A stretch of 63,843 nucleotides of DNA, counting the filler, from Reclinomonas americana ATCC 50394 (taxonomy: Eukaryota): NCBI GenBank assembly GCA_048213135.1. It is 6 parts of 5 records of this genome, joined end to end, with 100 filler letters (N's around TTAATTAATTAA, not from the genome) between each part and the next. Parts side by side here need not be neighbours in the genome. Positions count along the whole stretch, not along the records: positions 44,681 to 52,844 come from PS015436.1; 5 more parts are not named here. One strand, written 5' to 3'. The translations under genes and the position numbers were made by a program. Below are positions 44,681-50,600 of this stretch, one piece after another (positions within the stretch are counted from its first letter, which is position 1; each line of letters starts with the position of its first letter). Below the pieces are notes generated by a model. That model was not told the DNA's origin, did no database searches, and saw only the letters and a list, made by a program, of their open reading frames with translations.

Positions 44681-47600
44681 GGGGGCAGGTGCTGCAAAGG
44701 GCATCATCAAGGCGCGATCAGCCAACATCTTCTTTCGCTCGATCTCCGCGGCGATAGCTGCTGTGCGTTTGCGAATGTCCTCCTCGAGCTGACGCTTGCG
44801 CTCGCGTCGCGATTCGTTGCGCAAACGCTTGGCGATGCTCTCGGCGTCTTGGAACTCGGTAGTCTTGGCACGCTCCAACTCGGCGCCGACCAGCCACGTC
44901 TCCGACTCGGTGTGCTCGGTGGTGAACGGCGACAGAAGCGTCGGCATTGCACGGTCCCTGTCCGCCTTCTTGTCGCCGGGACTGCAGAAAGACCATGCGA
45001 GTGAGCGACAACAAACAACGGACTGTGCAAGTAGCAGTACGCAACTTGTGAAGAATCTTGAACATGCCGGTTCCCAGCGGCACCGGCGTACCCATGATGA
45101 TGCACTCTGACACACCGTCCATGTGATCGCAGCGCGTGTGCGCCGCCGCATCGAACAAGTGGTCCACTGTCTTCTCGAACGAGGCGAGCATCAGCACCGA
45201 ATCCTTCATCTTTTGCACGCCGAAACGCGTAATGCCGAGGATCTCGCCCTTGAAGGTCATGGTGTCGGCCAGCAGCTGAATGTGTCGACTGTCGATGTTC
45301 ATGCCGTGCGACTTCATCGTATACTGGATCTCGTCCACAATCGTCTTGCGGGCCGCCTCAATGCCGAGCACTTTTTCCACCTGCGATGCGCCAGCGACAT
45401 GATATCAGCAGCTGCACATTAAACAAGAACGGCATCGCATCCCAGTACCTCCATAATGTGGTTGCTTCGCGTCTTGCGGGCCACCACGCCGGGCGTGCCC
45501 ATCACTTGCAGCAACTTGGTGCCCTCGGCCAAAATCTGGTGCTCCTTGCCCTTGACTGCATCCTCAGCCTTGACGCTAATGACGGCGCGACTGACTGTGT
45601 CAATGCCGGCGACCACAATCTTGGAGATGGCGTTCTTGATGGTCTGCAGCTGGTAGTACATGTGCGCGCGGTCCTGCATCGGCGTCATGATGCGCAACTT
45701 GTACTCGCTGACAGCTTGCACGTGCTGTCACAGGAGACCGCGCGACGTAAGCCACACTGCTGCAATATAACACCAAAACCCCCGCCGCTTGCTGTCGCTC
45801 ACCTTGTCGCGCAGCTTCAACTTGGGCGCCTTGATGATTGCCGCTCGCACCTGCTCGGCTGAAATGCTCAGCTGCAGATCCTGAATGGTCTTCTCCGCCA
45901 GGCGCACAGAGAGGTAGCAGCTCCCGGGCGAGTAAACCTCCTTGATGTACTCGCACACCTCGCCGAGGGTGGTGCGCTCAATGCGCGCCTTGACCAAACG
46001 CGCACTCTGCTCCGACCACGGGTTCTCCAGCGTGGCGGTGATGATGGGAGTGTTAATCTTTTGCGAGGCATTGATGATCTCCTTGATGCGCGGCACACCG
46101 AGCGTGACGTCTGACACCCGCGCAGGACTGTCAGCGAAATTCTCCGCAAGGCCAGAAAGCAACTGACGCAACTCATGGAGGCGACGCCGGCAAAGTGGAA
46201 TGTCTTCAGAGTCATTTGCGTGCCTGGCTCACCGATCGACTGCCCGGCCAGTGCACCAATGGCCTGACCCGGTTGCACGTGTGCATCGCGGCACTTGGTG
46301 ACGCACAGTCGGCAAAACTCCTCCAGCTGGTTGCGCGTGATGCCAAAGGCCTTGTTGACCACACCAGTGGCCAAGTTGAAATCTGCCATGCGCAAGTGTG
46401 AGAGCAATCACCACCAATAGCTGCTTTTTGTGCGACAAGGGCCACCTTGGCGGGTGCGGATGCGATCGCCTGCATGAAAATGTGAAAGTGAGTATGAGTG
46501 CACGCACGCTTTCCATCGTGACACCGCCACCACACACGCAACTTGGTCGGCGAGCAGTGAGGGGCGCAGCAACTGAGACACAGAGAACATAAATGCGTAA
46601 GGAATCTCGTGCAGCACAGATATGCGCCGCGTCGGCAGTGACACGAACCGTCTGTGGTTGTGGATGCGAGCAGAATCTGATCGCGCAGCGCTCGGTAGCC
46701 TGTGATGACAAGTTTCAGAGGGGGAACAACTGCAACAAGACAATCGTCGACATTACCTTGCTCAGCTGCAGTGGAGTCTTCAACACACAAAGAGCGCATT
46801 TTAGCAAGCACGACACAAAGTGTCACGACGGTCATGCATGCACTCACCGGCCATGGCTTGGCGAATGACTGATGGTCGCGGAGAAAAAACACAGCGATGA
46901 TGAGACAATTGATCATTACCCTGCACACTCCTTGTGCAACAAGAACACACACCGGCAGTCATGCGCTCGCCTGCCAAGCACATGAGTGAGTGAATGAGTG
47001 TCGACAAGATGCAACAAGCGCAGATGGACTCACCCGCTAATCTCGCCTCCTTGACTCCAACAACCTCTGCACAGATAGGTGCACGCAATGAGATGCCAAG
47101 CGCAGCTCAAGCTCCGTGTTGATCCTCACTGACCTCGGACACCCACGGGCGGTGGAAGCAGGAAGGGTGGTGCTGCAGACAAAGTGAGACATTTGACGTA
47201 ACGCGAGACGTGACACGCCAACGCGCACCATCGAGGAGAGGCTCGACATCTATGCACAAATGGAGAAATGCGAATCGTCCAGTTAGCGAATGCGTGCGTG
47301 CTTTTGGAGAGGCAACGGTGCGGCTGGCACATACCCTTCATGGCGAGCACGGCGGCCTCCACGGCGGCATCAGCGGCTGCGACGTGTCAACGTGAGCATC
47401 TACAGGCATATGCACACACAAGAGAGGACACAAGCGGGAACCTTCCACAGCAGCCGTCGCCACTGTTCAACAAAGGCGACATGAGTCTCAAAATGAGAGA
47501 TGTGTGCACCCAAACCAACAATGAACTAACCGCGCTCTGCATCGCTCGTTGCTGTGTGATGAGACGCCGTGCGACGTAAGAAACACGGACAACACGAACA

Positions 47601-50600
47601 AGTGATGAGCATGCAATGACAACACACACCGGCATTTGCGTCTTCGTCGCCTGTGCACCGCGACAGTGTGCATAAGCATTGGTGCCGAGAAACCGCGTGA
47701 TGGGACTGCAGACACTCACCTTCCGCAAAGTACGTGCGTCGCTCAATGTTGTTTGTCGCCTTTCGTGCCTCTCGGCTCGCTGTAGATGCCGCAATATGAG
47801 CACCCGAACGAGAAATACACAAATCTACTTACGTCAACACGAACCAAGGAGAGCGCTTCGAGCACCTGCGACAACAAAGCATACGTGTCAGTAACAGGCA
47901 GCATACGTAGAATCACTGGCGCAAGCGAGAAAAGTGCGTACTACTGACGGCATTTAGTGCGGCTGACATGTGCACGACACAAACGCACATGATGAGCAGC
48001 AGGACGCAAGCAATAGAGAGAGGGCGCACAAAACCTTGAGCACAGCGCTTGGCGGCCTCACTCACTCGCTCCGCTGCCGGGTGGTTGCATGTGAGTGAAC
48101 AGGCACAACACGACGGAACGCAAGAGAACACACCTGGATTGAGTGGCTTCAACTTTTTGCGTTCCAGCATGGTCAGCACCGCCGTTGCAGCATCTGCAAG
48201 GCCACCAGGGAGTGTAAGAAGCACAGATATATCACTGGCACCGTGTGTCGACACTCACCATGCTTGATCGGTGGTGCGTCTGCCACAACGAAAACAAACA
48301 CACAAGTCAACACAACGCCAAATAAACGCAAACAACACCGTGGAAAACACCCAACTCCTGACGACGTCGCAAGCTGCCCAGACAATGCGCAAGCGAGTGA
48401 GAGATTGCCATAAGTGCATCAAACAAAGAGAAATAGTGCATGTACACACACACACACACCTTCGTGACACCGTGCAGCGGCTGTCCATGATAAGAGATGA
48501 GAGAGACTGCCGTCAGATCACACTTTTCCAACACACCAAACAATTCGTGGCGACGCACCACCAGTTGCTTTTTCAGAATCTGCAGCAGCGCGCACTGTGA
48601 GCGACTCAGTGCGACAGAGACAAGCGAGACAAAGCGCACGCAACATTTTACAGTACTGGCGCCGTCACCTGCAGGCGGAACGATCGTTCGGCATAGTAAG
48701 CTTACGTGGCGTGATATGACACGATCCGTTGAACACAAGTAACGCAACGGAGAGCACGCTGACTCGCTGTGAACCACGTTGGTGTGGCCAGGCAGCGCCG
48801 CAAGCCCAACGCTACTCGCTCGTCGCCGAGATTCCTGGCCTCTTTCAGGACGTATTCCACCATCTGAGAGGCGCGACAAAGCATGAGGCATGCACTCGGA
48901 CTGGCGGTGCTGCTGCGATCGACGCAACTGACTGCGCAAATGACTTGGGGCACCACGCCTTGGCGTCGTCGCTGCTCAGGTAGCCAATCACATCCTCCTT
49001 CATCTGCCACGGCAGGAGGTACACGTCCGTGCGAGGCAGGCGCTGTACGCACACGAAACAAACAGATTAGGGGGTCATGCGCAACACGAGCACACACAGA
49101 AACACAGATGTGCTCGCTGACCTTGCACTTGACGAGCACACGATCAAAGTTGATCGGCTTGCCCTCCTTGGCTTCCATGAATTGCGGGTCAAGACCGTCG
49201 TCACCGTACGTGAACTGCACCACACCGTGCGTCGAGTTGCGCGCCGTTTTGTCGTAGTGCACGTGCAGGTCTTCCAGCGCCTTCATCAGACGACGCTGCA
49301 TGTAGCCCGTCTCGGCCGTCTTGACAGCTGCGCGGCATCAACGTGTGAGCAGAGCCAGCCTAAGAGGAGGGAACGAGAACGGAAGTGAGGATGGCACACA
49401 CACCAGTGTCGACAAGGCCCTCACGACCGGTGATGGTGTGGAAGAAGAACTCGGTGGGTGTGAGGCCGGAGAAGAACGAATTGGCCACGAATCCCTTTGC
49501 CGGTGGTTCCTTGGAGCGCTCCGGGAAGTGCGGCAAGGTGCGGTTGACGAACCCGTTGGGAATTCGCGTGCCATTGACTGTTTGCTGACCGACACAGGCA
49601 ACCATTTGACTGATGTTGATCGGTGAGCCCTTGGAGCCACACAACGACATGATTAGTGGTGCGTTGTCCGGATCCAACTCGTTCAGGCACATCTGTGGCG
49701 GCTGGTGGGTCATCGAATTGTACCACAGAGGGGCACACGAGCACGTACGTACCTTGCCCGCGTCCTCACGAATCACCGACAGGAGACCGTTCAACTTGGT
49801 CTCCAACGACTGCTCCAAATCACAGCCCGGCTGCAACTCCAGCTTGCCCTCCTTCCAGTCGGTAATCAACTTGCTGGCCTCTCGGTATCCATCTGACACC
49901 AACTTGGCCTTCTTGGACTGCACAATGGGCGACGGCGTGACATCGCTGATGCCGATCGAGAAACCGCGGTTGGTGATCCAGCGAGCCGACAAGCGAGCCA
50001 GACGGCCCATACATTCGGCGGCGTAGGCAGCCGAGTAATCGCGAATGAGTGTGTAGAACACGGAGTTCTTGGAGCCGCCACCAAGCACACCTGANNNNNN
50101 NNNNNNNNNNNNNNNNNNNNNNNNNNNNNNNNNNNNNNNNNNNNNNNNNNNNNNNNNNNNNNNNNNNNNNNNNNNNNNNNNNNNNNNNNNNNNNNNNNNN
50201 NNNNNNNNNNNNNNNNNNNNNNNNNNNNNNNNNNNNNNNNNNNNNNNNNNNNNNNNNNNNNNNNNNNNNNNNNNNNNNNNNNNNNNNNNNNNNNNNNNNN
50301 NNNNNNNNNNNNNNNNNNNNNNNNNNNNNNGTTGGCGCTGTTGGCGCTGTTTTCCTTGCCGGCTCTCTCGCTCACTCGTCGTGCTGGCAGGCGCGAGTGT
50401 TGCCACATCGAACGTTCCGCTTCAACGAGTGCTGCTGCTCGCCGTACAATGCCGATTTTGATGGCGACGAGATGAACATGCACATTCCGCAGACCGAGGA
50501 GGCGCGCACAGAGGCGTTTCACTTGATGGGAGTTGCGGTGTTTTTGCCTGTGTTGCACATGTGTGTGGATCGTGTCGCTCACTGTCCGGCTCGTTTGCAG

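Follow-up and report, generated by a model that had tools for sequence, protein, structure and literature searches.

A tiled array of candidate in-frame micro-exons in the RNA polymerase III largest-subunit gene of Reclinomonas americana

When an exon is duplicated in tandem together with its intron, the neighboring exons that result share their length and phase. Tropoelastin, with its phase-1:1 exon arrays, and the micro-exon genes (MEGs) of schistosomes are the closest analogues of the locus described here, a stretch of 2.4 kilobases (kb) inside the gene for RPC1, the largest subunit of RNA polymerase III, in the protist Reclinomonas americana ATCC 50394 (assembly GCA_048213135.1). At this locus, 24 short introns and 23 putative micro-exons follow one another in a complete tiling. 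We analyzed it within a window, the whole stretch of 63,843 nucleotides (nt, filler included) made of six joined parts of the assembly, of which positions 44,681 to 52,844 come from record PS015436.1.

All exon borders of tropoelastin are phase 1:1, its replicated regions have introns of 60–100 bases, and the gene grew by replication of exon units and is alternatively spliced (10.1101/2024.12.03.626628). MEG exons measure 3–81 base pairs (bp) and MEG introns reach up to 5 kb (PMC10526429). Exons 4–8 of the fast troponin T gene TNNT3 are tiny 5′ mini-exons that can be combined differently (PMC2447309).

Like tropoelastin, the RPC1 array is uniformly phase 1:1 and keeps the frame when the cassette is removed (10.1101/2024.12.03.626628); unlike that vertebrate matrix protein, where the pattern spans the whole gene, RPC1 has it in the 2.4-kb insert only, and the remainder is mostly phase 0. 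With MEGs it shares serial, very short symmetric exons in multiples of three, which preserve the frame on skipping (PMC10526429), and it lacks their long introns, secreted product and predominance of micro-exons: MEGs are flatworm genes, made mostly of micro-exons, with secreted lineage-specific products, whereas the RPC1 array sits as an insert within a conserved nuclear subunit of a protist polymerase, with introns of 56–86 nt and other exons of normal size (110–336 nt). As in TNNT3 (PMC2447309), a cluster of tiny exons lies within an otherwise ordinary gene, but TNNT3 is a metazoan gene with five mini-exons, long introns and regulated splicing shown by experiment, whereas the RPC1 array has 23 predicted ones. 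No description of a comparable array in an RNA polymerase or in a protist was found in the open-access literature searched. Should transcripts confirm it, the array would be a very dense single-phase succession of introns and micro-exons in a universally conserved essential enzyme, in contrast to the other RPC1 introns, which are sparse and mostly phase 0.

Short introns and micro-exons tiling 2.4 kb of RPC1

The host gene, on the minus strand from ~52,800 to 45,000, is predicted to encode RPC1: open reading frames (ORFs) over 52831-44721 match Pfam RNA_pol_Rpb1_1 to RNA_pol_Rpb1_5 in order, and the best named protein matches are RPC1 proteins, the top one with 65% identity over a conserved 224-residue exon. 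The closest matches, P0001 (from Seculamonas, a jakobid) and P0002, are both only 65% identical, and the gene is collinear with P0001 by tblastn. The array had been located at first pass between the bridge-helix and trigger-loop regions, that is, in the foot region, and tblastn, Pfam and alignment all place it there. It lies within a gap-free stretch (44681-50094) of a window that is a draft pseudo-scaffold and elsewhere has many runs of N.

Splicing guided by homology to P0001 identified 12 ordinary RPC1 introns outside the array. All measure 56–79 nt, even though lengths up to 300–400 nt were permitted, and the next one past the downstream flanking exon spans 46172-46111 (minus). Phase 0 accounts for nine of them, phase 1 for two and phase 2 for one, which bears out the earlier remark that other introns of the gene include phases 0 and 2. 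Their acceptors are CAG in 12/12 cases and their donors are loose; the unusual donor GTTGCG occurs in 4/12 ordinary and 3/24 array introns (for example at 51879, 48928, 48748 and 46172 on the minus strand and 50532 on the plus strand). With the array included, all 36 RPC1 introns fall between 56 and 86 nt, and 34 of them have a CAG acceptor.

The first-pass annotation had proposed that the interval 48748-46383 resolves into 24 introns and 23 exons, and GT..AG tiling reproduced that parse exactly; a search with the proposed exon lengths gave 16 variants, which differ only at a few intron boundaries. The resulting micro-exons are 18–60 nt long, every one a multiple of three and 11 of the 23 exactly 21 nt, while all 24 introns are phase 1, at a density of one intron per 99 nt. 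The joined frame was likewise found open from ..SQRAL to DFNLATG..; it contains 0 stops, each of the other two frames 8.

These stop counts are one of four independent tests that set the structure apart from chance. Under rules requiring introns of 56–86 nt, exons of 18–60 nt in multiples of three, phase 1 throughout and a stop-free frame, the real sequence tiles in ~1.5e7 variants, whereas neither the reverse complement nor any of 300 dinucleotide shuffles can be tiled. We also parsed the region blind to frame by dynamic programming, with donor and acceptor matrices and a length term drawn from the 12 ordinary introns only and a generic YTNAY branch term. At threshold 6 this gave 24 introns, 19 of them identical to the earlier parse, and its total score of 178.5 compares with 80.7 +/- 12.4 (maximum 121.9) in 200 shuffles (z = 7.9). 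Its exon lengths are multiples of three in 21 of 23 cases (binomial P = 1.1e-8), against 592/1752 short exons in shuffles. A CTNAY motif, a feature that the earlier parse had not used, lies 12–41 nt before the AG in 21/24 array introns, where chance would give ~0.2 per intron by hand estimate. With leave-one-out training, array introns score a mean of 15.1 and ordinary introns 14.0 (Mann-Whitney P = 0.43). In a window-wide intron-density scan, with array introns included in the training of the model, the array is unique within the window, at 8–10 called introns per kb versus at most 7 elsewhere, and other short-exon runs are not in multiples of three.

On these sequence statistics the array structure is confirmed as real and is unusual; five boundaries are uncertain. 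The frame-blind parse departs from the earlier one at the first donor, at the acceptors before micro-exons 7, 20 and 21 and at the donor after micro-exon 18. For the first donor it favors 48763, 15 nt upstream of 48749 and also in frame; the intron after micro-exon 18 has the lowest score of all array introns (6.0), and the intron before micro-exon 20 ends in AAG and has no CTNAY. Three exons had been marked at first pass as having alternative boundaries: for 48373-48356 and 47172-47134 the frame-blind parse returned the same boundaries, whereas for 46777-46757 the acceptor differs.

The predicted insertion and other insertions in the same loop

The alignment to RPC1 of relatives that the first-pass annotation had called for places the predicted array product, 223 residues, in a variable loop. 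The spacing from YGDDG to GEPGTQ, measurable in 90 of 120 homologous proteins, ranges from 109 to 277 residues with a median of 150, compared with 384 residues in R. americana with the cassette and 161 without it (160 in P0002). The flanking exons alone line up with the relatives over the full stretch, and this makes the 223 residues a pure insertion. The same stretch also carries insertions in P0005 (Closterium; 277 residues), P0081 (248) and P0033 (276), although the R. americana loop is larger and its insert is split into 23 micro-exons. In P0005 the homologous site holds a tandem peptide repeat of about nine residues, and other lineages, too, thus seem liable to repeat expansion in this loop.

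Ala makes up 22% of the insert, well above the ~9% expected from exon base composition (hand estimate), and Arg 10%; the insert has no similarity to the 120 homologs or to the remainder of the window. Base composition of the micro-exons (A.23, C.31, G.30, T.16) is like that of conserved exons (.23,.29,.30,.19), and that of the array introns (T.34, A.16) like that of ordinary introns (T.29, A.13). Of the three frames of the joined micro-exons, frame 0 scores highest on codons, and G fills 0.47 of its first codon positions. Overall heptad periodicity, as in a coiled coil, was considered and rejected, the peak power of 1.75 being the 95th percentile of shuffles. We inspected 12 of 80 metagenome RPC1 loci upstream of the match, a crude look and not a spliced alignment; the frame runs on for 30 codons in 11 of the 12, with nothing to suggest that these 11 share an intron at the array site.

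Constitutive splicing, skipping and the origin of the array

We favor, with a probability of roughly 0.55, a reading in which the array comprises 23 constitutive in-frame micro-exons, spliced intron by intron, that grew within one ancestral phase-1 intron of a short-intron protist RPC1. Each array intron would be an ordinary unit of 56–86 nt, equipped with a donor, a branch-point-like CTNAY and a CAG acceptor; the spliceosome would recognize each such unit whole (intron definition), so that exon size would hardly matter. Since the array introns are as strong as ordinary ones and fall in the same length range, we infer constitutive inclusion, with all micro-exons ending up in the messenger RNA (mRNA). 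The product would be RPC1 with a lineage-specific Ala/Arg-rich insertion of ~223 residues in a hypervariable loop on the surface of the foot region between bridge helix and trigger loop, probably a tolerated decoration.

Phase 1 and the modal 21 nt would, on the same reading, be footprints of origin and not of a device. Any exon that arises within a phase-1 intron has to be phase 1-1 and a multiple of three if this essential gene is to stay in frame, which accounts for the uniform phase; with ordinary introns mostly phase 0 (9/12), 24/24 at phase 1 is beyond what independent random intron gains would give. We infer stepwise growth of the array within or beside one ancestral phase-1 intron, either through copying of an exon-plus-intron module or through exonization of intron sequence. 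Ala occupies position 5 in 8 of the 11 exons of 21 nt (corrected P = 0.004), which hints at a shared ancestral module; together with the 21-nt mode it fits module duplication. Compared with what tandem exon duplication leaves behind, the RPC1 units keep only the length mode, the phase and this one recurrent Ala position. If true, the array would clearly document how, in a genome of short introns, a protein can expand from within an intron; it also speaks to the question whether a single shared phase results from origin or from selection for skipping.

Several observations weigh against this reading. No residual sequence similarity among the array units was found by local alignment or Tandem Repeats Finder, and for that reason duplication stays a hint. 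The insert shows no significant hydrophobic periodicity. No close relative was found, the best identity being 68% among the 80 metagenome RPC1 loci and at most 65% in the protein search, in which no transcript-derived R. americana protein turned up. Removing the cassette restores the canonical 161 residues, while the 384 with it exceed all 90 homologs (maximum 277). Codon usage is atypical: the frame 0 codon log-likelihood is slightly negative (-15), and GC content at third codon positions (GC3) is 0.565 in 200 internal micro-exon codons; the 1154 ordinary codons stand at 0.791, the two flanking variable exons at 0.776, and the 161 ordinary codons that lie no more than 21 nt from a junction at 0.745. 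The difference in codon bias persists at four-fold sites (P = 5e-6), and synonymous sites of the micro-exons lie near intron GC content and look neutral. A frame that is kept while codon choice is untuned may be due to exons recently or still being born from non-coding sequence, to a peptide under no constraint, or to reduced translation through skipping.

These neutral-looking synonymous sites keep two kinds of alternative alive. The first-pass annotation had proposed a combinatorial splicing device, in which exons are variously included or skipped, or the whole cassette is skipped, to give RPC1 isoforms with different foot surfaces. Its arithmetic is sound, in that 24/24 introns at phase 1 and exon lengths in multiples of three allow any subset to be joined in frame, and all-phase-1:1 genes such as tropoelastin are indeed spliced in a cassette-like manner (10.1101/2024.12.03.626628). 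Skipping of the whole cassette would give the canonical spacing of 161 residues, and this, together with the atypical codons of the micro-exons, leaves such skipping a share of the probability. A canonical RPC1 might then coexist with forms that carry part or all of the 223-residue insert, the codon usage reflecting exons translated less often than other parts of RPC1, and an essential RNA polymerase would gain a foot surface tuned or diversified through the choice of micro-exons. The array splice signals, however, equal those of ordinary introns in strength; skipping one exon would take an intron of at least ~140 nt, and skipping the cassette one of 2366 nt, against 56–86 nt in all 36 RPC1 introns; and mostly skipped exons would be under weak purifying selection on frame, yet 23/23 are multiples of three and stop-free. 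Origin alone accounts for the phase uniformity. The device is thus not supported by these data, and we regard both it and the skippable module as improbable.

The other alternative kept alive by the synonymous sites is that an overgrown intron or large insertion was cut into 24 short introns because the spliceosome is limited to ~50–90 nt, the micro-exons being minimal in-frame spacers and the peptide a functionless by-product. It would explain the tight intron sizes (56–86 nt in 36/36), the crowding of exon sizes at a small value (11 at 21 nt, minimum 18 nt), the neutral-looking synonymous sites near intron GC, an insert unmatched among 120 homologs and elsewhere in the window, and a site in a tolerant loop. 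The excess of Ala and the codon pattern of G first and C second are more protein-like than random spacers should be, the recurrent Ala-5 in 21-nt exons points to module duplication, and a 2.4-kb insertion must have been spliceable on arrival; we hold this explanation to be unlikely, though better placed than the others. A third reading takes the interval as one phase-1 intron of 2366 nt, with splice-like signals inside it that are relics or chance and absent from mature mRNA. Direct joining gives a protein of canonical length and the micro-exon codon usage is atypical; automatic annotation would probably call one intron here, a trap in that the product looks plausible while 223 residues are missed. 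But such an intron would be ~30 times any other seen in RPC1, the introns inside it, being of ordinary strength, would be removed regardless, and untranslated sequence is not expected to tile where 0/300 shuffles do, to yield 21/23 frame-blind exons in multiples of three or to hold stops of 0, 8 and 8. The signals of exon length and open frame make this reading hard to hold, and we give it poor odds; the claim that the interval is an array and not one featureless long intron withstood the shuffle test, the intron scores and the frame-blind parse.

Four further accounts of the array were tried and rejected. An introner-like burst is not indicated by intron similarity, array-array alignments scoring a mean of 14.2 and array-ordinary alignments 13.9, with the maximum of 24 inside the shuffled range. 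A recent tandem repeat or minisatellite with a period of ~90 nt is likewise not seen, Tandem Repeats Finder giving four tiny arrays with periods of 2–12 nt. For recursive splicing through ratchet points, only 2 of 23 micro-exons (1 and 9) begin with GT. As to selection for stops in retained introns, an in-frame stop is present in only 9 of 24 array introns, and array introns 7, 8, 11, 12, 18, 19 and 21 are multiples of three free of in-frame stops, so that their retention would preserve the frame.

Feature coordinates and surrounding sequence

Table 1. Predicted exons of the RPC1 array and its flanks, in window coordinates
Feature	Length (nt)	Position	Strand	Basis and remarks
Upstream flanking exon (..MVEYVL..SQRAL)		48749..48863	-	Open frame and alignment to relatives; ends on base 1 of split codon (phase 1)
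Whole array, 24 GT-AG introns (56–86 nt) and 23 micro-exons (669 nt in total)	2366	46383..48748	-	
Micro-exon 1	24	48645..48668	-	Both boundaries found by frame-blind parse
Micro-exon 2	21	48559..48579	-	GT-AG tiling and frame-blind parse
Micro-exon 3	21	48460..48480	-	GT-AG tiling and frame-blind parse
Micro-exon 4	18	48356..48373	-	Flagged as ambiguous at first pass; frame-blind boundaries identical
Micro-exon 5	21	48259..48279	-	GT-AG tiling and frame-blind parse
Micro-exon 6	60	48134..48193	-	GT-AG tiling and frame-blind parse
Micro-exon 7	39	48035..48073	-	5′ boundary uncertain; frame-blind acceptor 48069, 5 nt further, out of frame
Micro-exon 8	21	47942..47962	-	GT-AG tiling and frame-blind parse
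Micro-exon 9	21	47845..47865	-	GT-AG tiling and frame-blind parse
Micro-exon 10	60	47720..47779	-	GT-AG tiling and frame-blind parse
Micro-exon 11	21	47630..47650	-	GT-AG tiling and frame-blind parse
Micro-exon 12	21	47531..47551	-	GT-AG tiling and frame-blind parse
Micro-exon 13	21	47442..47462	-	GT-AG tiling and frame-blind parse
Micro-exon 14	42	47335..47376	-	GT-AG tiling and frame-blind parse
Micro-exon 15	21	47229..47249	-	GT-AG tiling and frame-blind parse
Micro-exon 16	39	47134..47172	-	Flagged as ambiguous at first pass; frame-blind boundaries identical
Micro-exon 17	33	47034..47066	-	GT-AG tiling and frame-blind parse
Micro-exon 18	18	46953..46970	-	3′ boundary uncertain; frame-blind donor 46919 gives a 51-nt exon, also a multiple of three
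Micro-exon 19	21	46848..46868	-	GT-AG tiling and frame-blind parse
Micro-exon 20	21	46757..46777	-	5′ boundary uncertain; frame-blind acceptor 46766, 12 nt on, in frame
Micro-exon 21	51	46649..46699	-	5′ boundary uncertain; frame-blind acceptor 46677, out of frame
Micro-exon 22	30	46543..46572	-	GT-AG tiling and frame-blind parse
Micro-exon 23	24	46446..46469	-	GT-AG tiling and frame-blind parse
Downstream flanking exon (DFNLATG.., trigger-loop region)		46173..46382	-	tblastn to P0001; Pfam RNA_pol_Rpb1_5

The window contains artificial joints (44 N + TTAATTAATTAA + 44 N) at 19063-19162, 44581-44680, 52845-52944, 58102-58201 and 62023-62122, and the joint at 52845-52944 lies inside the RPC1 gene. 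A contig piece at 50331-51050, flanked by two N gaps, holds the RPC1 active-site region on the plus strand; with every other part of RPC1 lying on the minus strand, a wrong orientation of this piece in the scaffold is the most likely explanation.

Positions 1-26000 hold long overlapping ORFs on both strands, and the 61 ORFs of at least 140 residues lying wholly below 26000 gave 0 Pfam matches at E <= 1e-5. Pfam identifies as neighboring genes, all on the minus strand, a retinol-binding-protein-receptor-like fragment (29058-29705), a TPH (trichohyalin-plectin-homology) protein (41026-42198), a protein kinase (53331-54548) and a GHMP kinase (63117-63842).

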